A program made the translations under genes and the position numbers. Under the pieces are notes generated by a model. It saw only the letters and a program-made list of their open reading frames with translations, made no database searches and was not told the DNA's origin. A stretch of DNA of 56,072 bases from Oscillospiraceae bacterium (GTDB lineage Bacteria; Bacillota; Clostridia; Oscillospirales; CAG-272): the NCBI GenBank assembly GCA_015064525.1, contig SVSC01000001.1, forward strand, positions 1-56,072, read 5' to 3'. Of this stretch, positions 14,416 through 48,179 are shown one piece after another; within the stretch, counting starts at the first letter, position 1, and each line of letters starts with the position of its first letter.

Positions 14416-14499
14416 TACCATGAATGAGTGTCTTTGCCGTCGGGAATCCGCGTAAGCGACGCGCGGCGAAGAAAAAGTGTGAAACAACAGGAGACGAAT

Positions 14500-30000: not shown

Positions 30001-30240
30001 TCCATGGACGGTTCGATTTCCTGGACTCCCATCAGCGGCACCAGCAAGTATCGCGTGACCATTGTGTGCGGAAACGTGAGCAAGACCGTTGAGGTGACCT
30101 CCACCACGTTGGATCTTCTCAACTATGAGGAGTTTGAGGACGTGAATATGAAGTCCGACCACATCGAGATCACGGTTCAAGCCATCGGAAACGGAATGAC
30201 TACCGTTACCTCTGAGGCTGCCACCGCGGTTTGGAACTAA
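27007..30240 (+). CDS. Surface lipoprotein composed of about 12 FN3/Ig-like modules
   Basis: 1077 aa. Signal peptide with lipobox LAFSAC|DK. Twelve units of about 85-95 aa each show the pattern P.n[LIV]....g.[IL].W..V.gA..Y.[VI]......, e.g. PQNLRYDGTLITWNASEGAEAYLVQING. Confidence 0.85.
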   Translation: MKKRFLILTLVLLLSVLAFSACDKEAGGSGALGGLLGGAPVTPQNLRYDGTLITWNASEGAEAYLVQINDGEEWTVTVPQYAYDAAGGQFTFKVTAVADANAKKPKKSEPATMNFKPLGNIGELRVADDGSVSWDVVSMATAYVVKIDGVQTAHVLPTPTFTEVPVGRHSIQIRPVINGDDSYYSKWSNPVSFEVLQPVSKDTITYDPSGYIKWGAVGAQFYDVYVNGNLIADNCNSTQVSYDPLNANFEVTIQAIGNHSSTYDAKISDAKKFVFLDSVTNIVVEDGILKWDPVNGANGYRLRLNGTELNETFTTCEFNRLTANTNTRVEIRAISNDDTYFSSWSAEKNVLLLPAPTLRWNEYELDGQANSNIYWDTVAQAAGYAIRITRPNGVTEVLTYGETQRFFQEAYLESGTYIVEAKALANTTTSNVYDSIYSTPIKVIRLDAPKPAKSNPLTSNPNDLDDGFVVTFEKVAGATSYKLFQDNVLNQTISSTQGQFSVKNFSDPGRIEEQTYNFKIQSVGSVQTVNGQIVATLSSLSANSYAFEVTVLATPAQPTISGYQYSYGSVSRAFGYVVDVGGQSFVSGETFYNLDMLAAGNYSVSVCAQGNGTNVLPSNYSAPITVYRLDAPANVRIDTTEASEGILTFDDVLYAQSYEVFFNNDGNALPVSSIQNMNQYITEQGTTVHMKSVANYYNSDGTIYYMSSQPGSTTNFIKLAKPTFGDVAFTNDNLIWKAPGNVDSSVYTPTYEVYYPNGMIYNGEKNGTSFSLATLEGGQSYEFQVKAIGNGTKYINSEKSITVAIYKLATPKVERENGKYVFKRVTNAVSYAVYVDGELVATYQHNSDITSYEYTPLFKELKTYMVEVVAIGDQGYTSINSNPCVIEQETKQLQTPDFKLSYSEESYSPSGQVIATITKESPYAKEYAYDIGGTTYTSAALSQGKTVSTAGKITVRVYAIGGNFDENGVYYIDSQSQGGNDRYSIIILASPNPSDFKFSMDGSISWTPISGTSKYRVTIVCGNVSKTVEVTSTTLDLLNYEEFEDVNMKSDHIEITVQAIGNGMTTVTSEAATAVWN

Positions 30241-30250
30241 CAAATAAAAA

Positions 30251-30305
30251 ACAGAAGCCCTCCCCCGCAAGCAGGCGCTTGCGGGGGAGGGCTTCTGTTT
30301 TTTTC
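30251..30305 (+). terminator. Strong rho-independent terminator of the lipoprotein operon (A-tract/T-tract, potentially bidirectional)
   Basis: Perfect 22-bp stem (acagaagccctcccccgcaagc / gcttgcgggggagggcttctgt), loop aggc, followed by a T-run at 30298..30304. Confidence 0.93.
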
Positions 30306-30460: not shown

Positions 30461-30866
30461 ACTAACATCGTGGAGCGTTTTGGGTGGTGGTACCAAAACG
30501 CTTGCGGGAGCTATTGCGTGGTGAGCGTACCGCAGATAGGCGGCATAAAACTACAGACCGAGCCGCCATGTATTGCAAACTCCAAAACAACCCCTGATGA
30601 AAGTTCTTGGAGGTGTGGAACCTTCTTTCAAGAAGGTTCCACAAGCCACCCTTTTCTTTCCAAACTAACATCGTGGAGCGTTTTGGGTGGTGGTACCAAA
30701 ACGCTTGCGGTAGCTATTGCTTGATCAGCGTACCGCAGATAGGCGGCATAAAACTACAGACCGAGCCGCCATGTATTGCAAACTCCAAAACAACCCCTGA
30801 TGAAAGTTCTTGGAGGTGTGGAACCTTCTTTCAAGAAGGTTCCACGAGTTCAAATGACTCCAAACT
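30461..30866. repeat. Tandem duplication (period 203 bp) of a 182-bp hairpin-rich non-coding element
   Basis: Cores at 30461..30642 and 30664..30845 are both 182 bp and differ at 4 positions (30508, 30518, 30521, 30523 versus their partners). Each has 4 predicted stem-loops, including a 12-bp stem gtggaaccttct/agaaggttccac. The boundary word ccaaactaac occurs 3 times. Confidence 0.9.
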
Positions 30867-30877
30867 AACTCCCTATC

Positions 30878-32410
30878 TTAACCCGCCTGCCCGCAAAGCT
30901 TGGTGATCAGAGCGCGAAGCTCGGCGCGGTCGGGGAGGGAAGTGAAGTCCATGGCGTTCAGCTCGGCGGCGATCACCTCAAGGGTGAAGTCGGCATCCAG
31001 ATAGGCGCTGTTGTGGAGATACATGGCGATCTCGATTACGGCGGTAATAAACCTGAAGTCGGCGGTGGGGGTCTCGGTCAGGTTGGCAGAGCCGATGGCG
31101 TACTCGTTGAGCGTGGAGGTCTCCTCGTTGGGACGCTTGTAGCGAACGGCAAGCTTCATCCAGTCGGTGAGGGTGGCGGTCTGCTCGGTGAGGGTCAGCT
31201 CGTAGCAAACGGTCACCTGATGTCCGGCGCCAACCTCGCCTGCGTCCTTGGTGTCGTCCTCAAAGTCCTCTTGGTTGAGCATACGGTTTTCGTAGCCGAT
31301 GAGGCGGTAGGAGGAAACGGCGGCGGGATCGAAGGTGATCTGGAGCTTGGTGTCCTTTGCAACGGTATAGAGGGTGGAGAGAAGGTCGGTGCCGAAAATG
31401 CGCTCGGCTTCGCTCTCGCCGTCAATGTAGTAGTAAACGCCGTTGCCGTTGTCGGCAAGCGCTTCCATGTTGGCGTCGCGGTAGTTGCCCGTTCCAAAGC
31501 CGAGAACCGAGAGATAGATGCCCTGGTCGCGCTTTGCTTCAACAAACTGTTTCAGCTCCTCGGCGGAGGAGATGCCCACGTTCAGGTCGCCGTCGGATGC
31601 CATGATGATGCGGTTGTTGCCGTTTTCAATCATGCTGTCGGCGGCAACCTGGTAGGCTCTTTGCAAACCCGCCTGACCGTTGGTGGAGCCCGATGCCTTC
31701 AGGCTGTTGATCGCCTGCAGGATCCGCTCGCCCTGATTTCCGGGACAGCCCGAAAGCACAACCTCCTCCTTGCCCGAGTAGGTTACAATGGAAACGCGAT
31801 CCTGCTCGGTGAGTTGAGAGGTGAGGTAGGTGAATGCCTTTTTCAGAAGCGGGAGCTTATCGGAGGAGGACATAGAGCCCGAAACGTCGATGAGAAAGAC
31901 CAGATTGTTGCCGCCCTCGGGCGTGCTTTCCTCAGCTTGCAGGGTGAGGCGCAGCAGACGGGTGTTGGCGTTCCAGGGCGTTTGGGCGATCTCCGCCTTC
32001 ACGCCGAACAGCTCGCCGTTTTGGGGAGATACCGCCTCATACTTGAAATAGTTGATGAACTCCTCGGTGCGGAAGGAGGCACCGTTCTGACGGAGATAGC
32101 TGATGGCATAGTTGTTGTTCACCAGCTTGCGAAAATAGGTGTAGGAGGCAGTGTCCACGTCGGCGGAGAAGGTGGAAACAGGCTGCTCCATGGTGGCGAT
32201 AAAGGGATTTTCCTTGAAGGTGGGAGCGGAGGGATCCTTGTTTTCCTCCTGATCGGGGAGCCCATCCTCGGGAAGCGCGCCCGCGTTGTAGTTTGGCAAA
32301 AGGGCTTCATTTTCCATGGGGGCGTTTCCCATGCTGTCCTTGGCGGCGCCGCAGGAGGCAAGGGTGATCAGCAGAGACAGCGTTAAAAGAATTGATAACA
32401 GTTTTTTCAT
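30878..32410 (-). CDS. VWA-domain lipoprotein (YfbK-like: N-terminal extension + von Willebrand A + C-terminal domain)
   Basis: 510 aa. Lipobox LITLASC. MIDAS motif in LVFLIDVSGSMSS. N-terminal FSADVDTASY region typical of this family. Confidence 0.85.
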   Translation of the reverse strand: MKKLLSILLTLSLLITLASCGAAKDSMGNAPMENEALLPNYNAGALPEDGLPDQEENKDPSAPTFKENPFIATMEQPVSTFSADVDTASYTYFRKLVNNNYAISYLRQNGASFRTEEFINYFKYEAVSPQNGELFGVKAEIAQTPWNANTRLLRLTLQAEESTPEGGNNLVFLIDVSGSMSSSDKLPLLKKAFTYLTSQLTEQDRVSIVTYSGKEEVVLSGCPGNQGERILQAINSLKASGSTNGQAGLQRAYQVAADSMIENGNNRIIMASDGDLNVGISSAEELKQFVEAKRDQGIYLSVLGFGTGNYRDANMEALADNGNGVYYYIDGESEAERIFGTDLLSTLYTVAKDTKLQITFDPAAVSSYRLIGYENRMLNQEDFEDDTKDAGEVGAGHQVTVCYELTLTEQTATLTDWMKLAVRYKRPNEETSTLNEYAIGSANLTETPTADFRFITAVIEIAMYLHNSAYLDADFTLEVIAAELNAMDFTSLPDRAELRALITKLCGQAG

Positions 32411-32452: not shown

Positions 32453-33100
32453 TTACGTCAGATCCGACAGCAGATCCAAAAACAGATCGGTTGGAACCCG
32501 CTCGGATTCATAGTCGAAGAGAACGGCACCGCCAACATTTCCAACGGTGGGGTTGAGGCAAGGGGTCACCACACTGCCGTCACCCAGCATCACCCAAACG
32601 CGATATTCCTCGGGGGACGCGTTGGCTGCTACCTGTTTGCCGTTAGCGCGGAATTCGCGGGCAAGGGTGGATTGCTCGGCGGCGGTCAGCGGGCGACTCA
32701 CAAACAGCTCGCCTGAGGAACGGTTTTCCACCGTTAGTCGAACGTTCCCGTCGAAAAAGTTAAGCTCATCGGCGGCAGATTTTGCAAACGAAGGACTTTC
32801 GGCGCATCCCTCAAGGAGAGCGGAGAGCGTTGGGGCAGAGGTGGGAAGCTTGGTTCCCTCCTGGGGTTGCTCCTGCGTTGGAGCATTGGGAGTATCGGTT
32901 TTCAAAATTCGGGAGAGAGGGCCTGTTACGGCAAAGAGCAGGATCGCCGCCACAGCCGCCACCGCGATCCAATTGCGGAGGGTGTGGCGAATGGGGGGAC
33001 GGGCGGTTCGATAGTTCAGCGCCTCGTCCAGAAAGCTATCGTTGATTCCGCCAATGGCGTCCAGCAGGCGGTCTGCCCGATGTTGATCGCGGCGCTTCAT
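32453..33100 (-). CDS. Single-pass membrane protein, putative anti-sigma factor
   Basis: 215 aa. ATGA overlap with the upstream ECF sigma gene. N-terminal LLDAIGGINDSFLDEA motif, then one TM segment (WIAVAAVAAILLFAV) and an extracytoplasmic domain. No ZAS motif. Confidence 0.5.
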   Translation of the reverse strand: MKRRDQHRADRLLDAIGGINDSFLDEALNYRTARPPIRHTLRNWIAVAAVAAILLFAVTGPLSRILKTDTPNAPTQEQPQEGTKLPTSAPTLSALLEGCAESPSFAKSAADELNFFDGNVRLTVENRSSGELFVSRPLTAAEQSTLAREFRANGKQVAANASPEEYRVWVMLGDGSVVTPCLNPTVGNVGGAVLFDYESERVPTDLFLDLLSDLT

Positions 33101-33651
33101 AAGAGATCCTCCTTTCCAAGCTCTTGGCGCAGGGCTTCCCGCAGGCGCAGTAGCGTGACCTTCACGTTGGATTCGGAGAGGTTCAGCTCCCGAGCGATCT
33201 GCGAGATGGGGGCGGCATAGAAATACCGCTGAACAAACATGACGCGACGCTCATCGGGGAGCTTGGAGAGAAAACGGTTGATGGCTTGGGTGAGCCGCTT
33301 GTTTTCGTAAGCGTCGGCGGGGGTAGGGGAGCTGTCGGGAATACAATCGGTCAGCTCCTCGGTAATGGCTCCGAGACCGCCTCGCTTCTGTCGGTGATCG
33401 CGGCGAAAGCGGTCGATGGAGATTCTTCGGGTAATTTTCGCCAGAAAGGCGCCCAAATGGGTGGGGCGTTGAGGCGGCATGGCGTTCCAGGCGTCCAGCC
33501 AGGTATCGTTCACGCACTCCTCGGCGTCCTGATGGGAGGAGAGACAGGAATAGGAAAGCTGACGGAGCATCCTTCCGTACTTGCGGTCGGATTCGGTGAT
33601 TGCCAGCTCGTTTCTTGCCCAGTAGAGCTTTACGATTTGAAAGTCTTCCAT
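33097..33651 (-). CDS. ECF-type RNA polymerase sigma-70 family factor
   Basis: 184 aa. Region 2 (DAEECVNDTWLDAW) and region 4 HTH (ISQIARELNLSESNVKVTLLRLR). Confidence 0.88.
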   Translation of the reverse strand: MEDFQIVKLYWARNELAITESDRKYGRMLRQLSYSCLSSHQDAEECVNDTWLDAWNAMPPQRPTHLGAFLAKITRRISIDRFRRDHRQKRGGLGAITEELTDCIPDSSPTPADAYENKRLTQAINRFLSKLPDERRVMFVQRYFYAAPISQIARELNLSESNVKVTLLRLREALRQELGKEDLL

Positions 33652-34029: not shown

Positions 34030-34058
34030 TTGACAAAAATTAAAAAGTGTGATATACT
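34030..34058 (+). promoter_or_regulatory. Sigma-A type promoter of the ABC transporter operon
   Basis: TTGACA (34030..34035), 17-nt spacer, TGaTATACT (34053..34058). It leaves a leader of about 175 nt before the ATG at 34237. Confidence 0.65.
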
Positions 34059-34236: not shown

Positions 34237-36462
34237 ATGAACAAGATCAGAATTCTGTCCTTTCTTATGGTTGTGATTCTGGTTGCCGTTATGGCTGTTG
34301 GTTGCTTCAATAAGGATGAAAATCCCCAGAACACCACAGAGCCGAGCGGTAACAACACTCCTGTTGTATATCAGGATATCGACCTGAAGGACGCCATCAA
34401 GCGCACCGACTTTACTTCCGTTTATTCTAAGATCGGCGCAAACATCACCATCGCGGACGTAACCGAGACCCCCGACGGTCTTGCATACGTTACCGTTGAC
34501 GGCAAGAAGTATGACCTGGGTATGGACTTCTTGTCCATGGCTATGGTGTACAACACCAAGGTTCCCGAGGGCAGCACCAAGTACCAGACCGAAGAGGATG
34601 TTTACAACGAGTGGTGGAAGCTCTACATTCAGAGATGGAACTACCTCGCTCCCGAGGTTCCGCTGTACTCCAACCAGTACTTCGATCTCTACAACGCAAA
34701 GCTTCAGAACTTTGTAACCTCTCCTTACTGGGATCCCGCAGATGCGATCATCGCGGCTTCCGTTAAGGCAGGCGCTGCAAACTCCGTTATTCTGGGTAGC
34801 GCAACCGAGCTTTCCGGTGCGTTCCGCAGCTCCAGCTGGGGCAAGTCCTCTCCCGGATCCGCCGACCTGGATATCGAGAACCTGACCTCCGGTCACGCAA
34901 CCGTTCAAACCGATAAGAACGGCGCTATGATCTGGAACGAGTACGTGGTTAACGGCACTCCTACCTCCAAGGTAAATGAGGACGGCACTCTCACCTACAC
35001 CATTAAGATTAAGGAAGGCCTGAAGTTCAGCGATGGCTCCGCTGTTAAGGCAGAGAACTATATCGTTTCCCTTCTGGCGAACTCCACTCCCGTTGCTGCA
35101 GCAGCAGGCGGCTCCGATCGGGCAGGTATGCAGCTGATTGGCTTCGATGAGTTCAACAAGGGTACCTCCAAGTTCTTCAAGGGCGTTCAGCTGCTTGATG
35201 ACTACACCTTCGCGGTAACCTTCCTGGCTGACTACGCAGGCTACTACTATGCAATGTCCTACGCGAGCTTCAGCCCCGTTCCCATGGCGCTCTACACCGG
35301 TGACAACACCGTTACCATCACCAAGGACGCCAACAACTGCTGCGGCTTGAGCGACAACTTCTATGCGCAGGTTGAGAAGGACGGCACACAGGTTTATGTT
35401 CAGGCTGAGAAGATCGTTGCTAACCTGAAGTGGAACTCCAACCTGCCTTACTCCGGTCCTTATGTGGTTCACAATTACGATGCATCCACTCTGATCGCAA
35501 CCCTGAAGCTGAACCCCAACTATTCCGGTGACACCGCAAGAGGCAAGGCTTCCATTGAAACCATCACCTATATCAAGATCGAGTCCGAGACTCAGACCGA
35601 TAAGTTCAAGGCAGGCGAGGTTGACGTGCTGGCAGGTATCACCGGCGCCACCGAAACCGTTGCAGCTCTTGAGCTGGTTAAGAGCGATCCCACGAAGTAC
35701 GCTGAAACGCACTACGACCGCGCAGGCTACGGTAAGCTGGGCTTCCGCGCAGACTTCGGTCCCACCGGCTTCACCGCTGTTCGTCAGGCAATCATGTACA
35801 CCATCAACCGCAACCAGTTTGCTCAGGACTTCACCGGCGGCTATGGCTCTGTGGTTCACGGTCCCTACTACACCGGCTACTCTGCTTACAAGGCAGTTGA
35901 GAACACCATTAAGCTGAATGCTTACACCTACAGCAAGGACAGCGCAATTGAGGCTCTTGAAGAGGGCGGCTGGATCTACAACGTTGAGGGTAAGACCTTT
36001 GATGCTTCCAAGGATAAGGTTCGCTACAAGAAGCTGGCAGGCTATGAGCTGACCGAGGAGAACATTCAGTTCAAGTCCACCGACAGCAAGTACAAGACCG
36101 TAAAGATCGACGGTGAGTACTACATGCCTTTGGCAATCAACTGGTTCGGAACTCAGCCCAATGACGTGACCGACATGCTGATCGTTGCATGGCAGGAAAG
36201 CAAGACCGCAACCGAGGAGATCGGTATGTATATCACCTATACCTCCACCGACTTCACCACCGGTTTGTACGGTGAGCTTTCTTGGATTCCCGATTACGGC
36301 TTCGACGGCACTCCCAAGCTGAATGCCATCAACTTTGCAACCGGATTTACCAGCGCACTGTATGACTACTCTTGGAACTGGACCATTGATCCCGATATGT
36401 ACGACGATTATTCCGTTTGCTACGTGATGGATTCCGCTGATTTCTGGGCAGACTATCAGTAA
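34237..36462 (+). CDS. ABC transporter substrate-binding lipoprotein, family 5 (peptide/nickel/oligosaccharide type), unusually long at 741 aa
   Basis: ATG at 34237 after ggaggaa. Lipobox VMAVGC. Family-5-like core (e.g. KFSDGS.V.AENY, NPNYSGD, GGW). Confidence 0.85.
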   Translation: MNKIRILSFLMVVILVAVMAVGCFNKDENPQNTTEPSGNNTPVVYQDIDLKDAIKRTDFTSVYSKIGANITIADVTETPDGLAYVTVDGKKYDLGMDFLSMAMVYNTKVPEGSTKYQTEEDVYNEWWKLYIQRWNYLAPEVPLYSNQYFDLYNAKLQNFVTSPYWDPADAIIAASVKAGAANSVILGSATELSGAFRSSSWGKSSPGSADLDIENLTSGHATVQTDKNGAMIWNEYVVNGTPTSKVNEDGTLTYTIKIKEGLKFSDGSAVKAENYIVSLLANSTPVAAAAGGSDRAGMQLIGFDEFNKGTSKFFKGVQLLDDYTFAVTFLADYAGYYYAMSYASFSPVPMALYTGDNTVTITKDANNCCGLSDNFYAQVEKDGTQVYVQAEKIVANLKWNSNLPYSGPYVVHNYDASTLIATLKLNPNYSGDTARGKASIETITYIKIESETQTDKFKAGEVDVLAGITGATETVAALELVKSDPTKYAETHYDRAGYGKLGFRADFGPTGFTAVRQAIMYTINRNQFAQDFTGGYGSVVHGPYYTGYSAYKAVENTIKLNAYTYSKDSAIEALEEGGWIYNVEGKTFDASKDKVRYKKLAGYELTEENIQFKSTDSKYKTVKIDGEYYMPLAINWFGTQPNDVTDMLIVAWQESKTATEEIGMYITYTSTDFTTGLYGELSWIPDYGFDGTPKLNAINFATGFTSALYDYSWNWTIDPDMYDDYSVCYVMDSADFWADYQ

Positions 36463-36650: not shown

Positions 36651-37685
36651 ATGGGCAAATATATCGTTAAGCGCATACTGTATATCCTCGTTGTGTTTCT
36701 GATCCTCTCGTTGATGATCTTTTTGATATACAATATGCTGCCCGTGGACAAGGCGATGGAAAAGGCGAGAGAGGAAGCCCAAAATCCCGCGAACCGAAAC
36801 AACCCGAATTTTAATATCGACGAGCGATATGCCTTTTGGCAGGAAAAGCTCGGCTTGAACGGTAATAAATTTGAGAGGTACCTGCGTTGGCTGGGTGTTT
36901 ATCCCTATGTCGACGGAACGTTCAACGGCTTGCTGCAGGGCAACCTGGGAGAATCGTTTAAGTACGCGCGTCCCGTATCAGAGGTTTTGGTGGAGCCTAT
37001 GAAAAACACCATTTTTATCAACATTTTCGCAACGATCCTCGCGTTGGGGATCACCATTCCGCTGGGTATTTTTTGCGCGGTGAAGCGAGGCAGCAAACGC
37101 GACCTTGCCGTGCAGGTTGGAACGGTTATTGGCTATAGCTTGCCAACGTTCATTATTGCAATCGTATTTATTTGGCTGTTTTCTGTAACGCTGGAGTGGT
37201 TCCCCGTTTCCGGTATGGCAACGGCGGGCAGCTTGGATTGGTCTCCCGCGAAGCAGTTCTGGGATAAAATGTATCACCTGTGTCTGCCTTTGATGGTTAT
37301 GACCTTCTGCTCTCTTGGCGGTATGACCCGCTATGTGAGAGCCTCCATGACCGAGGCGCTCTCGATGGATTGCATCCGCACCGCTCGCGCCAAGGGCTTG
37401 CGAGAAAAGACCGTGGTGTATTCTCACGCGTGGAAAAATGCGCTGATCCCCATTGTCACCCTTGTGATCGGTTGGTTTTTGGGAATCTTCAGCGGCTCGC
37501 TGATGATCGAGAATATCTTCTCCCTCAACGGCGTTGGAAAGGTATATTTCGATGCGCTGCAGAACAACGATAACGATATCGTTCTGGCGTTGCAGATGTT
37601 CTATATCTTTATTTCGTTGGCGGGAAATCTGCTCATCGACATTGCCTACGGATTTGTGGATCCTCGCGTGCGCGTGAATAAGTAA
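36651..37685 (+). CDS. ABC transporter permease, DppB/OppB type
   Basis: 344 aa. MGKYIVKRILY N-terminus typical of OppB/DppB. EAA-like region (MDCIRTARAKGL). Confidence 0.9.
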   Translation: MGKYIVKRILYILVVFLILSLMIFLIYNMLPVDKAMEKAREEAQNPANRNNPNFNIDERYAFWQEKLGLNGNKFERYLRWLGVYPYVDGTFNGLLQGNLGESFKYARPVSEVLVEPMKNTIFINIFATILALGITIPLGIFCAVKRGSKRDLAVQVGTVIGYSLPTFIIAIVFIWLFSVTLEWFPVSGMATAGSLDWSPAKQFWDKMYHLCLPLMVMTFCSLGGMTRYVRASMTEALSMDCIRTARAKGLREKTVVYSHAWKNALIPIVTLVIGWFLGIFSGSLMIENIFSLNGVGKVYFDALQNNDNDIVLALQMFYIFISLAGNLLIDIAYGFVDPRVRVNK

Positions 37686-37699
37686 GGGGGAAAAATGCC

Positions 37700-39658
37700 A
37701 TGAATGAACAAAATAAAAAGACCCCCTCAAAGGCAGGCGCAATCTTGCGCACGCCCTTCCGCTGGATTGGAAGAATGTTCTTTGGCGCCAGCAAGTCGAT
37801 GGCGAACGATCCCTTCGCCGTGGAGAAGCTGGAAAGCCCCTCCAAAATGGCGGTGAAGGAGTTTTTCCGCCGCAAGGTTGCGGTTGTGGCACTGGTTGTT
37901 CTGGTGGCGCTGTTCCTGTTCGTGTTTGTGGGCTCGCTCTTCATTCCCATGGATCTGAGCTACACCGATACGCTTCAGGCAAACATTCCCCCAAACTATT
38001 CCATGCGTCGGGTTCCCAAGGAGCTGAAGGACAACATTCGTGAGATCAACGGATTTTCCAATTTCACCGTTGGTGTGAGCCATGACAACACCCTCTATAT
38101 GTGGGGCCATACCAACAATGCTCTTTCCAATCAGGATTACGCCGCGTTCCCCGAGGAGATTCAGCCCGGCAAGGTGCTCACCGCCTCCGCAGGCTATAAC
38201 CATGTGATCGCCATTACCACCGACGGTAAGGTGGTTGGATGGGGAGACAACACCAGAGGACAGTACGGCACGGCAAATGAGGCGGATAACCTTTTGCAGA
38301 TGCCCGATCTCATCCTCAACGGAACCTTGGACCCCGCAAAGGTTCAGCAACTGGTTTGCGGCTATCAGGCAACCGCCCTGGTTTACGACGGTCAGCTCTA
38401 TATGTGGGGTAACTGCAATGCCCTCACCAACATGAAGCAGCTTCTTGCGGCAAGCGAGACCTACTGTCAGGAGAATAACACTCGCGTGGCAAAGGTGGTG
38501 CTTTCCAACTACTATGGCGTGGTGCTCTTTGAGAACGGCGCTATGACGGGAAGCAATATGCTCTTTAACCGAGAGTCCGCCATGTCCTCCACGGGCGAAA
38601 AGGTGAAGAATTTCACCACCTATATCTTTGATAAGAAGCTGGTTGACATTGCCGCCACCAACAACTGCTTTGCCTTCCTTCTGGAGAGCGGAGAGGTTCT
38701 GGTTGCGGGTGCTGCCGAGTTTGGCGAGCAGGATATTGCCCCCATTCCCGAGGGAGAAAAATACGTTTCTCTTGCGGGGGGAACCCGCCATTTCGTTGGT
38801 GTGACCGACGCGGGCAAGGCGTATGCGTGGGGTCATAACGATAAGGGTCAGGCAGAGATCAACGGTCAGGCGGCAACCACCGTTTACGCAGGTGCAAAGC
38901 AAACCTATTTGGTGAACGGTGAGGATGATCTCACCGAGTCCTTCGGCTTGAAGGGCTATCTGTTCGGAACCGATAACCGAGGCAGAGACACCTTCACCCG
39001 AATCGTTCACGGCGGCAAGATGACCATGACCATCGGCGCCGTTGCGGTGATCGTTTCCTCGATCATTGCCATCATCGTTGGATGTCTTTCGGGATATTTC
39101 GGCGGTTGGGTGGATATGCTGCTGATGCGTATCACCGAGATCTTCTCCGCCATCCCCTTCCTGCCCTTTGCCATGATGCTTTCCATGATCATTCGGTTTT
39201 ATCCCATCAGCGACACCATGAGAATTTTCATTATCATGATTATTCTCGGTCTGCTCAGCTGGACGGGTCTTGCGCGCATGATTCGCGGACAGGTGCTGGC
39301 AGAGAGAGAGAAGGAGTTCGTTATCGCGGCGCAGTCGATGGGTGTGAAGGAGCATCTGATTGCCTTTAAGCACATCCTGCCCAACGTAATCTCGGTAATT
39401 CTTGTGAGCATGACGCTGGACTTCGCGGGATGCTTGCTCACCGAGTCGTCGCTGTCCTACCTGGGCTTCGGCGTTCAGCAGCCTCAGCCTACCTGGGGTA
39501 ATATGCTCAACGGCGCAAACAACTCCATCGTCATTCAGAACTACTGGTGGCAATGGGTGTTCCCCTCGATCTTCCTGTCGCTGGCAACCATTAGCATCAA
39601 CGTGATCGGAGACACCCTGAGAGACGTTCTTGACCCCAAGAGCAGCAGAGAAAAATAA
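37700..39658 (+). CDS. ABC transporter permease, DppC/OppC type, with a ~330-aa RCC1-like beta-propeller inserted in the first extracytoplasmic loop
   Basis: 652 aa. TM1 is VAVVALVVLVALFLFVFVGSLFI, followed by seven blade-like units (YMWGH, GWGDNTRGQYG, YMWGN, AWGHNDKGQAE and others), then the canonical LFGTDNRGRD motif and the OppC core. Confidence 0.88.
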   Translation: MNEQNKKTPSKAGAILRTPFRWIGRMFFGASKSMANDPFAVEKLESPSKMAVKEFFRRKVAVVALVVLVALFLFVFVGSLFIPMDLSYTDTLQANIPPNYSMRRVPKELKDNIREINGFSNFTVGVSHDNTLYMWGHTNNALSNQDYAAFPEEIQPGKVLTASAGYNHVIAITTDGKVVGWGDNTRGQYGTANEADNLLQMPDLILNGTLDPAKVQQLVCGYQATALVYDGQLYMWGNCNALTNMKQLLAASETYCQENNTRVAKVVLSNYYGVVLFENGAMTGSNMLFNRESAMSSTGEKVKNFTTYIFDKKLVDIAATNNCFAFLLESGEVLVAGAAEFGEQDIAPIPEGEKYVSLAGGTRHFVGVTDAGKAYAWGHNDKGQAEINGQAATTVYAGAKQTYLVNGEDDLTESFGLKGYLFGTDNRGRDTFTRIVHGGKMTMTIGAVAVIVSSIIAIIVGCLSGYFGGWVDMLLMRITEIFSAIPFLPFAMMLSMIIRFYPISDTMRIFIIMIILGLLSWTGLARMIRGQVLAEREKEFVIAAQSMGVKEHLIAFKHILPNVISVILVSMTLDFAGCLLTESSLSYLGFGVQQPQPTWGNMLNGANNSIVIQNYWWQWVFPSIFLSLATISINVIGDTLRDVLDPKSSREK

Positions 39659-39682: not shown

Positions 39683-40696
39683 ATGGCATTATTGGAAGTT
39701 AAGAACCTTCACACCTATTTCAAAACCAGAAAAGGCATTGTGAAGGCGGTCAATGACGTATCCTACACGCTGGAGCCGGGCAAGACCATTGGTATTGTTG
39801 GTGAATCGGGCTCCGGAAAATCGGTTTCGGCAATGAGCATTCTGCGCCTGCTGGACGATAACGGCTATATCGCCGAGGGAGAGATTCTGTTTGAGGGAAA
39901 GGAGCTGACCAAGCTCCCCATGAGCGAGATGTACAACATCCGCGGAAACGCCATTTCGGTGATCTTTCAGGAGCCCATGACCTCCCTCAACCCTGTGTTT
40001 ACCGTTGGTAAGCAGCTCAGCGAGCCCTTTATGATCCATCAGGGCATGAAAAAGAAGCAGGCGATGGAGCAAGCGCTGAAAATGCTCTACGACGTGCAGA
40101 TCCCCAACCCCGAGGCGGTGATCCGCCAGTATCCGCACCAGCTTTCGGGCGGTATGCGCCAGAGAGTGATGATTGCCATGGCGCTTGCCTGCAAGCCCAA
40201 GATTCTGATCGCGGATGAGCCCACAACGGCGCTGGACGTAACCATTCAGGCGCAGATCCTGAAATTGATGAACGACCTGCAAAAAGAGAAGGGAACCTCG
40301 ATCCTCTTTATCACCCATGACCTTGGCGTAATCAACGAGATGGCAGACGACGTGGTGGTGATGTACTGCGGTCAGGTGGTGGAAAAAGCCTCCGCCCGTA
40401 CCATCTTCACCAATACAAAAAAGAGCCATCCCTACACCGAGGGATTGATGTACTCAATCCCGAGAATCGACAATATCACCAAGAAGTTAGAGCCCATTCC
40501 CGGTGTGGTGCCGCATCCGTTGGCGCTGCCCAAGGGCTGTAAGTTCGCGCCCCGTTGCAAGTACTGCACGCAGAAATGCATGGAGGAGGAGCCTCCCCTG
40601 CAGGATGTTGGCAACGGTCAAATGGTGAGATGTTTTTATCCCGAAAAGGAGGAAAGATGCAGCGATGCCCACAAAGAAATTACTGTCAATCACTAA
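39683..40696 (+). CDS. ABC transporter ATP-binding protein, DppD/OppD type
   Basis: 337 aa. Walker A GESGSGKS, signature LSGGMRQR, Walker [13 protein letters not shown], and the C-terminal oligopeptide-type Cys motif ([10 protein letters not shown]). Confidence 0.92.
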
Positions 40697-42284
40697 TCTG
40701 AAAAAGTATTTCCCCGTTGCAAAGTCCTCTATTTTCCAAAAGGAGCAGCTCTACGTCCGCGCAAACGAGGACATTACGCTGGATATCTACGAGGGCGAGA
40801 CCCTTGGCATCGTGGGAGAATCGGGATGCGGAAAATCCACTCTCGGCCGCGTGCTGCTGCAGCTTTATTCGCAAACCGCGGGCGCAACCGTTTACTACGG
40901 CAGAACGCTGGACGATATGACCCCCTCCTACGTGGAGGATACCCTCAAGCACTTTTTCGCTTATCGCAAAAAGTATTACAAGGCAGTTGCGAAGGTTGCC
41001 GAGCTGGAGAAAAAGATGGAAGCCGTGGGCGGCGAGGATCATGCGGACTTTTTTCTGCATCAAAATCTGAATCTTGCCCGTTGCGAGGAGCATTCCGCGC
41101 TGAATAACATTGTGAAAATCCTGGGCGGATTTTTCGCCGTTCCCGAAGATCATCGCGGCGTTGAGCTGCTTTTGGAGATCTATCGTCTCAACAGCAAGAA
41201 AAACCGCTTGGCAGAGATGGCGCGGGAGTTTACCGTGATCTGTTCTCACGTGGAGGAATTGGAGGCGGAGGGCTCCGCAAAGCCCGCCGATCTCAGAAAG
41301 AAGGCCTCTGCCGAGGAAAAGCTCAGGGGGGTTAACGCCCGTGTTGAGGAGCTGAACGCCGCTATTGCGGGTGTTCGGGAAAAGCTGGACGCTGTGAAGG
41401 CAGAGTATGCCAACAATGAGGAATTTCAAAAGTACGAGGCGATGCTGGATAACGGCATCGACCTGGCGCGTTTGAAGTATGCGGAAATGAGAATGCTCCG
41501 AAAAGAGCTGCAGATTATTTTCCAGGATCCCTATTCCAGTCTGAACCCCCGATTTACCATCGGTCAGATCATCGAAGAAGGATTGGTAACCCACAAATTC
41601 TTCAAGCACGGTTCCAACAAGCTGAGAGAATATATCACGGAAACCATGGAGGAATGCGGCCTGCAGGAGTATATGCTCTACCGCTATCCTCACCAGTTCT
41701 CGGGCGGTCAGCGTCAGAGAATTTCCATTGCCCGCGCGTTGGCGGTGAAGCCTCGCTTCATCGTTTGTGATGAGTGCGTGTCGGCGCTGGACGTTTCCAT
41801 TCAGTCACAGATCATCAATCTGCTGCAGGAGCTGAAGGAAAAGGAAAAGCTCACCTATATGTTCATTTCTCATGACCTTTCGGTGGTGCGGTACATTTCC
41901 GACCGTATTTGCGTAATGTATCTGGGCAATATCGTGGAGCTGGCAGATGCCAAAACGGTGTTTGAGGATCCCCGACATCCCTATACGGTTGCGCTGCTTT
42001 CCTCGATTCCCACAACCGATATGGCGAACCTGAACCGCCCTCGGATTCTTCTGGAGGGTAATATTCCCAGCCCCATCCGTCCGCCCTCGGGCTGTAAGTT
42101 CCACACGCGCTGCTATATGGCTTGCGAGAAGTGTAAGCGCGTGCCGCCTCCTCTGCAGGAGGTGGAGCCCGGACATTTTGTGGCTTGCCATTTCTCCGAG
42201 CGAAAGCTGGATGAGAATGGAAACTACCTGTTCGAGGTGAAAAGCACTGAGGAGCGGGTTCTCAGAGACGGCGCCGCGGAATGA
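40665..42284 (+). CDS. ABC transporter ATP-binding protein, DppF/OppF type, with a ~190-aa helical/coiled-coil-like insertion
   Basis: 539 aa. Walker A GESGCGKST, then an insert rich in heptad-like E/K/A/L sequence, then QIIFQDPYSSLNPR, FSGGQRQR, FIVCDECVSALD and CKFHTRC. Confidence 0.88.
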   Translation: MPTKKLLSITNLKKYFPVAKSSIFQKEQLYVRANEDITLDIYEGETLGIVGESGCGKSTLGRVLLQLYSQTAGATVYYGRTLDDMTPSYVEDTLKHFFAYRKKYYKAVAKVAELEKKMEAVGGEDHADFFLHQNLNLARCEEHSALNNIVKILGGFFAVPEDHRGVELLLEIYRLNSKKNRLAEMAREFTVICSHVEELEAEGSAKPADLRKKASAEEKLRGVNARVEELNAAIAGVREKLDAVKAEYANNEEFQKYEAMLDNGIDLARLKYAEMRMLRKELQIIFQDPYSSLNPRFTIGQIIEEGLVTHKFFKHGSNKLREYITETMEECGLQEYMLYRYPHQFSGGQRQRISIARALAVKPRFIVCDECVSALDVSIQSQIINLLQELKEKEKLTYMFISHDLSVVRYISDRICVMYLGNIVELADAKTVFEDPRHPYTVALLSSIPTTDMANLNRPRILLEGNIPSPIRPPSGCKFHTRCYMACEKCKRVPPPLQEVEPGHFVACHFSERKLDENGNYLFEVKSTEERVLRDGAAE

Positions 42285-42499: not shown

Positions 42500-42546
42500 A
42501 ACGGCGTGATCCTTCCAAGCGAAGGATCACGCCGTTTCCTTTTCGG
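42500..42546 (+). terminator. Rho-independent terminator of the ABC operon
   Basis: Perfect 16-bp stem aacggcgtgatccttc / gaaggatcacgccgtt, loop caagc, followed by tccttttc. Confidence 0.85.
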
Positions 42547-44555: not shown

Positions 44556-46133
44556 ATGAATTTCAGTAAGGCTATTTGCCAGATGAGAAAACAAACGAAA
44601 TTAACACAAGAGCAATTTGCGGAATTGTTTGACGTTTCACAGCAAGCGGTTCAAAAATGGGAAAGCGGAGCATCGGTGCCGGACGTTGAGAAAATCATTC
44701 GGATCGCGAAATATTTTGATATATCGTTGGATTCTTTGCTGATGGACAACGATAATCGCGTGGTTGAGGAAATGAATCAAGCGCAAATTCTGAAGCCGCA
44801 GTACCAAAACCTCCACGATTGGGAGTTTTATTCGGCAAATTTAATGACCGAATTTCAGCAATCCATCGACGAGGGCCTGAATATTGATGCGTATAAAGAT
44901 ATTTTTGAGTCGGTTTCAAGGCTTCCCAAAGGAGAATACAAGAAAAAGCTGGGCGACGTTTTGTTTGAAATCGTGATCTCTGCCGAGCAAAAGGAGGGAT
45001 ACCCCTACGTTGAGCCGTCGGATCTGAACCGAATTCAAATGCTGAGGCGGGGCGCGGAGGCTCCTTTGCCCTTCGATGCGAGCCAGATCAGGGATAAGAT
45101 ATACGGCGCTTGGCTGGGAAGGATCTGCGGATGCCTGCTGGGCAAGTCGGTTGAGGGGATTCGAACGGACGATATCGTTCCCTTTTTGAAGGATACCGAC
45201 AACTACCCCTTGCATCGGTATATTCTGCACAGCGATCTGGCAAAAACGGATCTGACCAAGTACAGATTCAATTTTGTGGGCAGAACCTACGCGGATGATT
45301 TTGACGAGATGCCTCCGGATGACGACACCAATTACACCGTTCTCGCGCAGGAGATCGTTAAAAAGTACGGAAGAAATTTCACCCCCTACGACGTTTCAAG
45401 GGCTTGGCTCGCGTCTCAATGCAAGGATTCCTACTGCACCGCCGAGAGAGTGGCTTTTTGCAATTTTGTGAAGGGTTATACGCCTCCTCAATCCGCCATC
45501 TACAAAAATCCTTATCGCGAGTGGATCGGCGCGCAGATCAGGGGCGACTACTTTGGATATATCAACCCGGGCGATCCCAAGCTCGCGGCGGAAATGGCTT
45601 GGCGCGATGCCTCCATTTCCCACGTGAAGAATGGAATTTACGGTGAAATGTTCGTGGCGGCGATGCTTGCCATGGCGGCTGTAACCAACAATCCTGAGGA
45701 AATTATTCTCGGTGGACTGGCGGAAATCCCACACACGTCGAGGCTTTATGAGCATTGTATGCTGGTGGTCAAGCACTATCAAAGCGGGGAGTCTCAGAAG
45801 GCTTGCTTTGAAATGATTCATAATCTGTATGACGAATATACCGGTCACGGCTGGTGTCATACCATTTCCAACGCCATGGTTGTGGTGGCTTCGCTTTTGT
45901 ACGGCGAGGGCGATTATACGAAATCAATCTGTATGGCGGTTGAAACGGGATTTGATACGGATTGCAACGGCGCAACGGTTGGGTCTGTTCTCGGAATGGC
46001 GTTTGGCAAGGACTCTATTCCAAGCTGCTGGACGGATTCGATTCACGATACGCTCCGAACCACGATTTTTGGCGTTGGAACCGTTCGGATTGCCGATCGC
46101 GTTGAGCAAACCATGAAGCATCTTCTTCCGTGA
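44556..46133 (+). CDS. XRE-family HTH domain fused to an ADP-ribosylglycohydrolase-fold domain
   Basis: 525 aa. N-terminal HTH (LTQEQFAELFDVSQQAVQKWESG). ARH-like motifs include DDDTNYT and the C-terminal GFDTDCNGATVGSVLG. Confidence 0.85.
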   Translation: MNFSKAICQMRKQTKLTQEQFAELFDVSQQAVQKWESGASVPDVEKIIRIAKYFDISLDSLLMDNDNRVVEEMNQAQILKPQYQNLHDWEFYSANLMTEFQQSIDEGLNIDAYKDIFESVSRLPKGEYKKKLGDVLFEIVISAEQKEGYPYVEPSDLNRIQMLRRGAEAPLPFDASQIRDKIYGAWLGRICGCLLGKSVEGIRTDDIVPFLKDTDNYPLHRYILHSDLAKTDLTKYRFNFVGRTYADDFDEMPPDDDTNYTVLAQEIVKKYGRNFTPYDVSRAWLASQCKDSYCTAERVAFCNFVKGYTPPQSAIYKNPYREWIGAQIRGDYFGYINPGDPKLAAEMAWRDASISHVKNGIYGEMFVAAMLAMAAVTNNPEEIILGGLAEIPHTSRLYEHCMLVVKHYQSGESQKACFEMIHNLYDEYTGHGWCHTISNAMVVVASLLYGEGDYTKSICMAVETGFDTDCNGATVGSVLGMAFGKDSIPSCWTDSIHDTLRTTIFGVGTVRIADRVEQTMKHLLP

Positions 46134-46166: not shown

Positions 46167-48179
46167 ATGAGTAGAAAAAACGTCAGAGCTATCTGTTTCG
46201 CGGTAGCCGCAACGCTCCTCGCCTTGGCGTTGACCGCTTGCGGATCGTCGGGGAAGGGAGGCGACGAAACCTCCTCCACCGTTGCGGCTCTCCCCTCGGG
46301 AACCGCTGCTGAAACACCCAATCAGCCTCCCGCGCAGCTTACCAAGCAGGTGCGCATCAGCGAGGATGAATTATACGATAAGCTGGTGGGCGGATGGATC
46401 GGACAGATGCTGGGGGTTGGATGGGCTGCCTCCACCGAGTTCAAATGGTGCGGATCCATCATTCCCGAGGATTCCTTCCCGAAATGGGAGCCTTCCATGA
46501 TCAACGATGCCTTTCGGCAGGATGACCTTTACGTTGAGGTGCCGTTTCTGGATGCCATGAAAAACCATGGCGCGCTGTGCGACTCCAAGCACATGGCGGA
46601 TGCCTTCCGTGATTCGAAATTTCCGTTGTGGCATGCCAACGTGCAGGCAAGAGAAAATTTGCTGGAGGGCATTGAGTACCCTAATTCGGGCAGTTATCTT
46701 TATAACTATCATTGCGACGATCTTGATTGGCAGATCGAATGCGATTTTTTGGGACAGATGTACCCCGGGCTTGTTAACGCCTCGGCAATGCGTTCCTTTG
46801 ACGTTGGCCACATCACCAATTACGGTGACGGCGTTTACGGCGGCGTGTTTATCACGGCAATGCACGCGGCTGCCTACACAGCCGAATCAATTCAGGAGAT
46901 CATCAACGCGGGCATCGCCGTGATCCCCGAAAACACAGAATTCCGCATGCTGATCGATCAGGTGATGGAAAACTACCGCAACGGCTGTACCTGGAAGCAA
47001 AACTGGAACAAAATCGAGGCGCGATGGGGGCGTGACGACAGATGCTGCGATCTGGTGTCCTCCAAGGCAAACATTGATGCCAAGCTCAATTCCGCTTACG
47101 TGCTGATCGGTCTGCTGTACGGAGAGGGCGATCTGGAGCAAACGGTAATCATTTCCGGCAGATGCGGTCAAGATAGCGACTGCAATCCCTCCAGTGCGGC
47201 GTCTATTTTGGGTAATTTCTACGGCGCGTCGAAGATTCCCGAAGACTATACCGACGATTTGAGAACAGAGGGGATCACCTTCCATTCCACCACCTACACT
47301 TTTTCGGATGTGGTTGATGTCAGCTTTCAGCTGATGAAGGAGATCCTTGCGGCAAACGGCGCCGTTTGCGAGGACGGTGTTTGGACGATTCCCGTTGATC
47401 TGGTGTATGCTCCCGTTCCCTTTGAGCAATGGCCCGAGGATTACATTGGCGCAACTATGAGTATTGCCACCGATGCCACCCGCGCGATCAGATTGAAGGT
47501 TTCGCACTTTGGCACCCAAAGCATTGCAAGCGTGGAGCTTGACATGGGCGACGGTACGGTTCTCACCGCTCTGCCCACCGAGGCGTATGAATACAAGCAG
47601 GCGGGCGAATACACAATTACCTGCAAGCTCACGGGTAGCGGTGGCAGCACGGTCACAATTGTCAAAAAGGCGGTTATCGAGGATCGGATCATCGTTCCCG
47701 GACGGGCGATTTGCTCGATCACAAATCCCCAGGGGGGCGGCAATAAGGATATGCAGGTGATGTACGATCACATTGTTCCCGCGGTTGGAACCCTGAACGC
47801 AAGCCTGCAATACGATACCTACCGCAGCTCGGAGCGCCCCGAATCTGTGTACGCGGGCGTGGAGTTTGACGTGCCTGCCAAGCTGACAGGCGTTGCCTTT
47901 ACCGAGGGAATGCACTTCAATGACGGAGGATGGTTTGAAAACGCCCCCACCGTTGAGGTGCTGGTTGACGGCGTTTGGAAGGCGGTGGAGGCATCGGTCA
48001 GTCCGATCTATCCCTTAGGCACCTACGGGCGTGGGTCGAATTTCGACACCTATACCTTCACGTTCGCTGAGGAGGTTGTGTGCGAGGGCGTGCGTTTGAT
48101 CGGTAAGCCCGGCGGGTCGGCATGCTTTATCAGTATTGGTGAGATCACGCCCTTTGCGGTCGAGATCTACCCTTCGTAA
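46167..48179 (+). CDS. Secreted lipoprotein: ADP-ribosylglycohydrolase-fold domain + PKD-like domain + C-terminal beta-sandwich (discoidin/CBM-like)
   Basis: 670 aa. Lipobox LALTAC. ARH-like GQDSDCNPSSAASILG. PKD-like DMGDGTVL..YEYKQAGEYTITCKLTGSGG. The fold of the C-terminal ~170 aa is not identified with confidence. Confidence 0.8.
   Translation: MSRKNVRAICFAVAATLLALALTACGSSGKGGDETSSTVAALPSGTAAETPNQPPAQLTKQVRISEDELYDKLVGGWIGQMLGVGWAASTEFKWCGSIIPEDSFPKWEPSMINDAFRQDDLYVEVPFLDAMKNHGALCDSKHMADAFRDSKFPLWHANVQARENLLEGIEYPNSGSYLYNYHCDDLDWQIECDFLGQMYPGLVNASAMRSFDVGHITNYGDGVYGGVFITAMHAAAYTAESIQEIINAGIAVIPENTEFRMLIDQVMENYRNGCTWKQNWNKIEARWGRDDRCCDLVSSKANIDAKLNSAYVLIGLLYGEGDLEQTVIISGRCGQDSDCNPSSAASILGNFYGASKIPEDYTDDLRTEGITFHSTTYTFSDVVDVSFQLMKEILAANGAVCEDGVWTIPVDLVYAPVPFEQWPEDYIGATMSIATDATRAIRLKVSHFGTQSIASVELDMGDGTVLTALPTEAYEYKQAGEYTITCKLTGSGGSTVTIVKKAVIEDRIIVPGRAICSITNPQGGGNKDMQVMYDHIVPAVGTLNASLQYDTYRSSERPESVYAGVEFDVPAKLTGVAFTEGMHFNDGGWFENAPTVEVLVDGVWKAVEASVSPIYPLGTYGRGSNFDTYTFTFAEEVVCEGVRLIGKPGGSACFISIGEITPFAVEIYPS

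Follow-up and report, generated by a model that had tools for sequence, protein, structure and literature searches.

A predicted RCC1-like seven-bladed propeller in the extracytoplasmic loop of an OppC-type permease from gut Clostridia

The stretch of DNA analysed in the present work, referred to below as the window, comprises 56,072 nucleotides from an Oscillospiraceae bacterium (positions 1 to 56,072 of the forward strand of contig SVSC01000001.1, GenBank assembly GCA_015064525.1) and carries, at 37700..39658 on the + strand, a single uninterrupted open reading frame (ORF) of 652 amino acids, the translation of which is an OppC-type permease of an ATP-binding cassette (ABC) importer. On the combined evidence of anatomy and topology it is very nearly certain that this permease holds a complete RCC1-like seven-bladed propeller in an extracytoplasmic loop, the one between its first and second transmembrane helices (TM1 and TM2). 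The arrangement is not a categorically new system; it is a widespread, previously uncharacterised variant of a well-known type of transporter. A sequence-only reading of the same DNA, made before this analysis, had already proposed such a propeller in an OppC/DppC permease, with TM1 ending at 37948 and the motif LFGTDNRGRD starting at 38960; both positions were confirmed, all five of the RCC1 motif strings that it quoted were found in the translation, and the feature at these coordinates greatly exceeds chance expectation.

The order of Pfam domains in the 652-amino acid ORF is OppC_N, followed by RCC1 repeats, followed by BPD_transp_1. OppC_N (PF12911) matches residues 46-98 with 39.3 bits against a cut-off of 23.9, the BPD_transp_1 core matches residues 457-648 with 114.5 bits against a cut-off of 26.4, and the approximately 315 residues between OppC_N and the permease core (about 104-420) are occupied by RCC1-type repeats. 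The parts of the protein, with the evidence that delimits each, are the following:

37700..37948, + strand: OppC residues 1-83, basic cytoplasmic N-terminus and TM1 (OppC_N, hydropathy, alignment to TM1 of E. coli OppC)
37949..38035, + strand: OppC residues 84-112, canonical outside loop after TM1 (PMDLSYTD..ANIPPNYS), which precedes the propeller (matches the loop of E. coli OppC once the insert is deleted)
38036..38950, + strand: OppC residues 113-417, predicted RCC1-like seven-bladed beta-propeller (hidden Markov model, AlphaFold2, Foldseek and PDB sequence matches)
38951..39658, + strand: OppC residues 418-652, the LKGYLFGTDNRGRD motif, the five-helix permease core and the EAA-type motif KEFVIAAQSMGVKEHLIAFKHILPN (BPD_transp_1, alignment to E. 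coli OppC)

In the hydropathy profile TM1 covers approximately residues 59-82, with its end at 37948, and is the sole strongly hydrophobic stretch before residue 438. The N-terminal 60 residues include 13 lysines or arginines, a composition which fits the positive-inside rule for a cytoplasmic N-terminus, and the outside loop at residues 84-112 is conserved, with a mean top-residue frequency of 0.67. LFGTDNRGRD occupies residues 421-430 and is invariant among the aligned homologues (GTDxxGRD is kept in 79 of the 80 related loci described below), and the EAA-type coupling motif can be read directly in the permease core. The C-terminal region aligns to residues 80-301 of E. coli OppC (8z21_B) with an E value of 1e-49 in a search of PDB sequences, and in a Foldseek search of the PDB this part of the protein matched E. 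coli DppC and M. tuberculosis OppC, the membrane part of the AlphaFold2 model being of lower confidence (predicted local distance difference test, pLDDT, 50-68). None of the NCBIfam equivalogs searched (Opp1C-4C, OppC, DppC, NikC and GsiD) scored above its cut-off, the best being Opp4C with 299.1 bits against 350. Every sequence feature tested places the protein in the OppC/DppC family; it is an equivalog of no named transporter, and equivalence therefore assigns it no substrate.

The relationship between the insert and its host domain can be seen most clearly when the insert is removed. After in silico deletion of residues 104-416, the remaining 339 residues align to residues 28-301 of 8z21_B in one stretch that is gapless at the junction, where ...ANIPPNYSMR|LKGYLFGTD... 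is paired with ...MMSSAPDME-SGHYFGTD..., and the score against E. coli OppC rises from 172 to 193 bits. The gapless alignment indicates that the insert sits cleanly in the periplasmic TM1-TM2 loop, immediately ahead of FGTDxxGRD. Both DppB and DppC have a periplasmic TM1-TM2 region in the solved E. coli structures of DppBCDF and DppABCDF, and the one in DppB holds a scoop motif which enters the cleft of docked DppA (PMC12136057). The position of the insert, the periplasmic location of the equivalent regions in E. coli Dpp and the basic N-terminus together place the propeller on the extracytoplasmic side, as the sequence-only reading had predicted. The propeller is thus located outside the membrane, where the rim of the OppB/OppC dimer adjoins the surface on which the binding protein docks.

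The assignment of the insert to the RCC1-repeat family rests on the repeat models together with a predicted closed propeller of seven blades. RCC1_2 (PF13540) matches in three stretches (E 1.1e-23, 82.8 bits, cut-off 22) and RCC1 (PF00415), the search which had been proposed as a check, matches with an E value of 1.6e-11 and 45.0 bits against a cut-off of 21.7; the whole-domain model WD40_RLD (PF25390) gives an E value of 1.2e-30 and 107.6 bits, which is under its cut-off of 150. An AlphaFold2 model built from an alignment of 44 homologues has a pLDDT of about 80-93 across residues 100-420, and of about 90 in the propeller, and in it the long strands fall into seven triplets, each supplemented by short fourth strands, at residues 113-136, 159-182, 215-238, 263-296, 314-337, 355-378 and 394-416. 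The corresponding blades run approximately from 113 to 158, 159 to 214, 215 to 261, 262 to 312, 313 to 353, 354 to 392 and 393 to 417. Foldseek comparison of the propeller with the PDB returned UVR8 (E 1e-15) and also the RCC1-like domains (RLDs) of RPGR, RCC1 and HERC1/2 and the ectodomain of the receptor kinase ACR4; the probability was 1.00 for UVR8, RCC1, RPGR and BLIP-II, and the best structural match after normalisation by target length was BLIP-II (1jtd, 3qi0, 3qhy; TM-score 0.71-0.73). Among PDB sequences the propeller matches UVR8 with an E value of 1.6e-24 and BLIP-II weakly, with 6e-5. At about 315 residues the OppC propeller is smaller than the eukaryotic RLDs, which have about 360-400, and its blades 4, 5 and 7 are without the WG motif. 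In the alignment of homologues the invariant positions of the propeller are mainly structural glycines and the Trp-Gly of the repeat, whereas variability, including insertions and deletions, is greatest in blades 3 and 4. Ran-type exchange activity is no defining feature of the wider RLD fold, and Ran-type guanine-nucleotide exchange is not expected of an extracytoplasmic bacterial propeller of this kind.

The architecture is not restricted to the window. In a search of 5.8 billion proteins it was shared by at least 120 clusters, with 65-100% identity, lengths of 640-693 amino acids and the same order of Pfam domains; the clusters stem from independent assemblies (NCBI, ENA, JGI, Logan), and the proteins, where they are named at all, are called only "ABC transporter permease subunit". 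A search of 50%-identity representatives with the insert alone is dominated by giant multi-RCC1 proteins, the scores of which are summed over 20-50 repeats, and among these representatives the same architecture was recognised in P0098, P0267, P0154 and a few fragments. More divergent members, with 37-42% identity in the insert, retain the same domain order. One further 50%-cluster representative, P0231 (597 amino acids), has a proline-rich, lipoprotein-like N-terminus joined to the permease core and only the last three or four blades; its source is probably a contig that is chimeric or wrongly assembled, rather than a real shorter variant. Full-text searches of the literature turned up no paper on an RCC1 domain that is joined to, or lies within, an Opp-type or other ABC importer permease, in agreement with the earlier remark that no characterised example was known, but the architecture itself is not rare and can already be found in the public databases.

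A scan of one genome for each of 185,579 species, using patterns drawn from the alignment of the insert, gave 484 matching stretches, and the locus statistics reported here rest on the best 80 of these. In all 80 the whole insert is covered, with 41-61% identity, and all come from metagenome-assembled gut Clostridia (Oscillospiraceae, Faecousia, Clostridium sp. CAG:448, Candidatus Scatosoma and others); the hosts of genomes with the propeller-bearing OppC include ruminants, yak, rabbit, chicken and human. The ORF is complete at its 3' end in 78 of the 80 loci and contains internal stops in none. An artificial fusion of an RCC1 gene to a permease gene, through a frameshift, chimeric assembly or faulty gene calling, can be dismissed with practical certainty, because the ORF is single and uninterrupted, the insert is flanked on both sides by canonical OppC sequence, and the architecture recurs in at least 120 independently assembled clusters, in 80 of 80 loci and in an outlier which is 37% identical in the insert. 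On the three points at which the sequence-only reading was most exposed (a match to the propeller family and fold, the side of the membrane, and a spurious fusion), the analysis found, respectively, RCC1 matches with a predicted propeller fold, an extracytoplasmic insert and an intact gene.

The propeller and the membrane domain evolve at different rates. Across 78 loci the median identity to the OppC of the window is 86% in the membrane core, 70% in the N-terminus and TM1, and 53% in the propeller. The ratio of nonsynonymous to synonymous substitution rates (dN/dS) of the propeller is 0.04-0.12 in close pairs (dS < 1), which indicates that it is maintained by purifying selection; over all usable pairs the propeller has a median of 0.26 and the membrane core one of 0.06. 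With a mean protein distance of 0.88, as compared to 0.51 in the binding protein encoded beside it, 0.36 in OppB and 0.28 in OppD, the propeller is the fastest-evolving component of the transporter system. Pairwise distances of the propeller correlate with those of the binding protein with r 0.85 and with those of its own membrane domain with r 0.72. When the OppC membrane domain and OppD are controlled for, the partial correlation is 0.65 between propeller and binding protein and 0.46 between propeller and OppB; in 2000 permutations these values were never reached.

Comparison with known systems helps to define what is canonical in this transporter and what is not. With the canonical OppC/DppC proteins (E. 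coli OppC, 8z21_B; E. coli DppC, 8z1v_B; M. tuberculosis OppC, 8j5q_C) the protein has in common the OppC_N TM1, the FGTDxxGRD motif, the five-helix core and the EAA-type motif, and the partners of canonical Opp/Dpp operons are likewise present: OppB, the two oligo_HPY ATPases OppD and OppF with Fe-S-type cysteine motifs, and a cluster-C SBP_bac_5 binding protein. Canonical OppC/DppC proteins are, however, 287-302 amino acids long with a TM1-TM2 loop of about 20-25, whereas here about 315 extra residues are folded, according to the model, as a propeller. The nearest parallel in architecture is the P2 loop of MalF in the E. coli transporter MalFGK2, where a permease of a type I ABC importer likewise has a large folded domain in one of its extracytoplasmic loops. 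The P2 domain is immunoglobulin-like, lies between TM3 and TM4 and belongs to a sugar transporter, whereas the OppC domain is a propeller, lies between TM1 and TM2 and belongs to an Opp/Dpp system, and the parallel is thus one of analogy without homology.

The nearest parallels in fold lie outside transporters. BLIP-II of Streptomyces is a compact bacterial extracytoplasmic RCC1-like seven-bladed propeller for tight protein binding, but it is a soluble, secreted protein of about 270 amino acids outside any transporter, it is only about 19% identical, and nothing in the OppC propeller points to the binding of beta-lactamases. RCC1, UVR8, RPGR, HERC2 and the ectodomain of ACR4/CRINKLY4 share the repeat family and the seven-bladed fold of the insert, and ACR4 illustrates that such a propeller can be the extracellular part of a membrane protein. 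The eukaryotic RLDs are mostly intracellular, where they act with Ran and chromatin, in UV-B signalling or as ubiquitin ligase scaffolds, whereas the OppC propeller is inserted between two transmembrane helices. In Gram-positive ABC importers of the GlnPQ/OpuA type, extracytoplasmic substrate-binding (Venus-flytrap) domains are covalently joined to the translocator. The fused domain in those importers is the binding domain itself, whereas in the present system a separate binding protein has been retained and it is the propeller that is fused.

The gene for the propeller-bearing OppC is the third of five, and the elements of the operon in the window, besides OppC itself, are the following (all on the + strand):

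34030..34058, + strand: strong promoter-like site upstream of the operon, TTGACA, 17-nt spacer, TATACT, with a TG extension (consensus scan 11/12, pattern match only)
34237..36462, + strand: substrate-binding lipoprotein of cluster C (SBP_bac_5), 741 amino acids from the likely start (Pfam E 9e-33, lipobox)
36651..37685, + strand: OppB-type permease, 344 amino acids (BPD_transp_1 E 3e-35, BPD_transp_1_N)
39683..40696, + strand: OppD-type ATPase, 337 amino acids, with oligo_HPY C-terminal domain and four-cysteine motif (ABC_tran, oligo_HPY, Pfam)
40665..42284, + strand: OppF-type ATPase, 539 amino acids, with a helical insert of about 180 amino acids between Walker A and Q-loop (ABC_tran match split in two stretches)
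42500..42536, + strand: terminator-like hairpin with a 16-bp stem, downstream of the operon (consensus scan, pattern match only)

When the window proteins were compared by tblastn with the 80 loci, the five genes (binding protein, OppB, OppC with propeller, OppD, OppF) were found in the same order in every locus with enough contig. The binding protein is full length in those loci (50-71% identity over approximately 690-750 residues), OppB is 59-81% identical across them, and the outlier P0267, which is 37% identical in the insert, belongs to the same operon, the binding protein there having 705 amino acids and the OppF 546. The signal peptide of the binding protein ends in ...AVMAVGC, which reads as a lipobox. 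Its AlphaFold2 model (pLDDT 85) is matched best by Lactococcus OppA (3drh, E 3e-15), NikA and AppA in Foldseek, at about 14% identity, and it is approximately 180-240 residues larger than the solved cluster-C relatives matched (479-602 amino acids); SBP_bac_5 begins only at residue 261 of the ORF, and the additional N-terminal part, which is conserved in the family, is modelled with confidence (pLDDT about 90).

These observations favour, tentatively and at somewhat less than an even chance, an interpretation in which the propeller is a permease-borne docking platform for the lipoprotein binding protein of about 740 amino acids, in the manner of the MalF P2 loop. The propeller would be a platform for protein-protein interaction outside the membrane, which recruits, orients or retains the operon's own large binding protein on the translocator; it would itself perform no transport and would be unrelated to any Ran guanine-nucleotide exchange factor activity. 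The binding protein would still capture a peptide or peptide-like substrate, which would then pass through the OppB/OppC pore, driven by OppD and OppF. Docking is favoured because the loop that bears the insert adjoins the docking surface, as indicated by the contact of the DppB scoop motif with DppA; because the oversized binding protein is the only constant companion besides the core subunits, even in the 37%-identical outlier; because the propeller diverges more closely in step with the binding protein than with its own membrane domain, although this is weak evidence; and because MalF P2 provides a precedent. The P2 loop (residues 91-276) binds MalE with a dissociation constant of 7-22 uM and remains bound to it throughout the cycle (PMC6906923). 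Of the three roles which the sequence-only reading had suggested, namely a second receptor, a tether for the large binding protein and a sensor, it is the tether that gains support from these points, and the support is indirect.

Several considerations weigh against docking. The interface between propeller and binding protein is an inferred one. The correlation of their distances, which is of the mirror-tree kind, is weak, because fast-evolving extracellular proteins can co-vary trivially, through better resolution of the distances and through shared exposure. The propeller also diverges faster than the binding protein (0.88 compared to 0.51), which is hardly what one would expect where a tight interface is conserved, and would suit an outward-looking surface equally well. 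It is not obvious why a binding protein that is already tethered to the membrane as a lipoprotein would need a second tether. If the propeller is evaluated as a MalF-P2-like docking domain, it is a folded extracytoplasmic domain in a permease loop as P2 is, but it does not share the immunoglobulin-like fold or the position between TM3 and TM4. Finally, neither an OppC without the propeller nor a large binding protein without its partner was seen among the best 120 matches listed; all of these matches lie within the family, and the co-occurrence of the two proteins therefore cannot be separated from the vertical inheritance of one operon.

The evolutionary rates that sit uneasily with docking are what would be expected of a surface which tracks variable external ligands, and they bear on a second interpretation, in which the propeller is a permease-borne co-receptor that binds the transported compound or a carrier polymer (a glycopeptide, a cell-wall fragment, or a host or dietary protein) and thereby concentrates the substrate or feeds it to the binding protein. 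RCC1-like propellers are versatile modules for the binding of ligands and proteins, extracellular ones included (BLIP-II and ACR4 are among the Foldseek matches), and the closest sequence relatives outside the family are the giant multi-RCC1 proteins, of 2,000-7,000 amino acids, which are presumed to be surface proteins. Against this, the homologue alignment revealed no conserved pocket or ligand-binding motif, the invariant residues being mainly structural glycine and tryptophan, and the operon already contains a dedicated, high-capacity binding protein, which is of the Lactococcus OppA type; we regard a co-receptor in this sense as rather unlikely. A broader form of the idea, which is possible but doubtful, is that the propeller acts at the cell surface as an active second receptor, which traps a substrate that is macromolecular or conjugated, or else a partner enzyme, and passes the product to the oversized binding protein. 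If this were true, the system would represent a new subclass of Opp-type importers of gut Clostridia with a built-in co-receptor, and the role of the propeller would go beyond that of a docking aid.

It is improbable that the propeller instead docks some other extracellular protein, either recruiting a peptidase, so that degradation is coupled to uptake, or binding and inhibiting an enzyme in the manner of BLIP-II. The presence of that secreted bacterial protein among the best structural matches suggests such a role, but the likeness is at the level of the fold only, with 19% identity, and the neighbourhood of the operon offers no partner: in an all-against-all clustering of ORFs no neighbour outside the operon is conserved across the family, no flanking gene occurring in more than about 22 of the 80 loci, and consequently no peptidase or regulator emerges as a candidate. 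The flanking genes that do recur reflect synteny within one sub-clade.

A passive element, whether a spacer or shield which holds the cell wall or capsule off the docking site or a stabiliser or folding aid of the permease, in either case with no specific ligand, is more improbable still. Such a role would be consistent with the fairly low conservation of the propeller relative to the membrane domain and with the tolerance of blades 3 and 4 to insertions and deletions. It is harder to reconcile with the retention of an intact propeller under purifying selection in all lineages examined, including those that are 37-45% identical, and with the fact that no family member without the propeller was seen among the matches listed.

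The Opp/Dpp structures compared here have permeases which expose only short loops on the outside, and the large folded extracytoplasmic permease domain that was found described is MalF P2. A conserved propeller of 315 residues at the docking rim of OppC would represent a second, unrelated solution, and would provide a test case for the way in which additional domains tune the coupling of a binding protein to its translocator. Because uncultured Clostridia from the guts of ruminants, birds, rabbits and humans have the family in abundance, and because it is annotated only as a generic permease, it constitutes a nutrient-uptake system that is effectively undescribed. It also supplies a rare example of a bacterial extracytoplasmic RCC1-like domain with a defined molecular context, which could help in assigning a function to the many RCC1 repeats of large Firmicutes proteins.

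The two ATPases of the operon have features of their own. In OppD, Cys286/292/299/317 have the spacing (6/7/18) of the ligands of the [4Fe-4S] cluster of E. coli DppD, Cys284/290/297/315 (PMC12136057), and in OppF, Cys477/483/490/508 are within one residue of the spacing in DppF (293/299/306/323), which suggests Fe-S cluster domains in both proteins. Walker A and Q-loop are at residues 51 and 287 in OppF, as compared to 40 and 96 in OppD; the extra segment of OppF (about residues 95-262, or roughly 40947-41450) is largely helical or coiled-coil-like. The distance between Walker A and Q-loop of OppF has a median of 243 amino acids in loci of the Oscillospiraceae type, is normal (54-55) in about a dozen of the Scatosoma type and is 146-166 in a few, and since the length of the insert varies in this way among related operons it is not coupled to the propeller.

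Upstream of the operon in the window, and divergent from it on the - strand, lie genes for an extracytoplasmic function (ECF) sigma factor (33097-33651), a putative membrane anti-sigma protein (32453-33100, no Pfam match) and a vWA/YfbK lipoprotein (30878-32410); this group is not conserved beside the operon elsewhere, a match to the sigma factor being found only in L031. In 18-19 of the Scatosoma-type loci L055-L080 the opposite strand carries, ahead of the opp operon, ORFs which were named by eye as metA-like and metY-like, and which we take to resemble a homoserine O-acyltransferase and an O-acetylhomoserine sulfhydrylase, respectively. Their presence is probably lineage synteny, and could be a hint of sulfur amino-acid or peptide nutrition. 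Scanning of the window for Rfam families and tRNAs gave no match, and thus no riboswitch that would point to a substrate.

Further features lie elsewhere in the window. A run of very large putative surface proteins is encoded at 14428-17073 (881 amino acids, Listeria-Bacteroides (Flg_new) repeats and C-type lectin domains), 17119-26979 (3286 amino acids, Flg_new and GLUG motifs) and 27007-30240 (1077 amino acids, a lipoprotein-like signal and many repeat units of about 90 amino acids, with no Pfam match). The 1077-amino acid gene is probably terminated by a perfect 27-bp hairpin at 30246-30303, which lies just upstream of a tandem 185-nt element, the two copies of which (30461-30645 and 30664-30848) are 97% identical, repeat with a period of 203 nt in the intergenic region between convergent genes, and each end in a 29-nt near-palindrome, GTGGAACCTTCTTTCAAGAAGGTTCCAC. 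The element has no Rfam or tRNA match and no further copies in the window. On the far side of the operon, two genes of the ADP-ribosylglycohydrolase family are adjacent; the second (46167-48179) has a weak, sub-threshold match to a PKD domain (23 bits against a cut-off of 27), and in the first (44556-46133) an N-terminal HTH_3 DNA-binding domain is fused to the ADP-ribosylglycohydrolase, which is an unusual combination.

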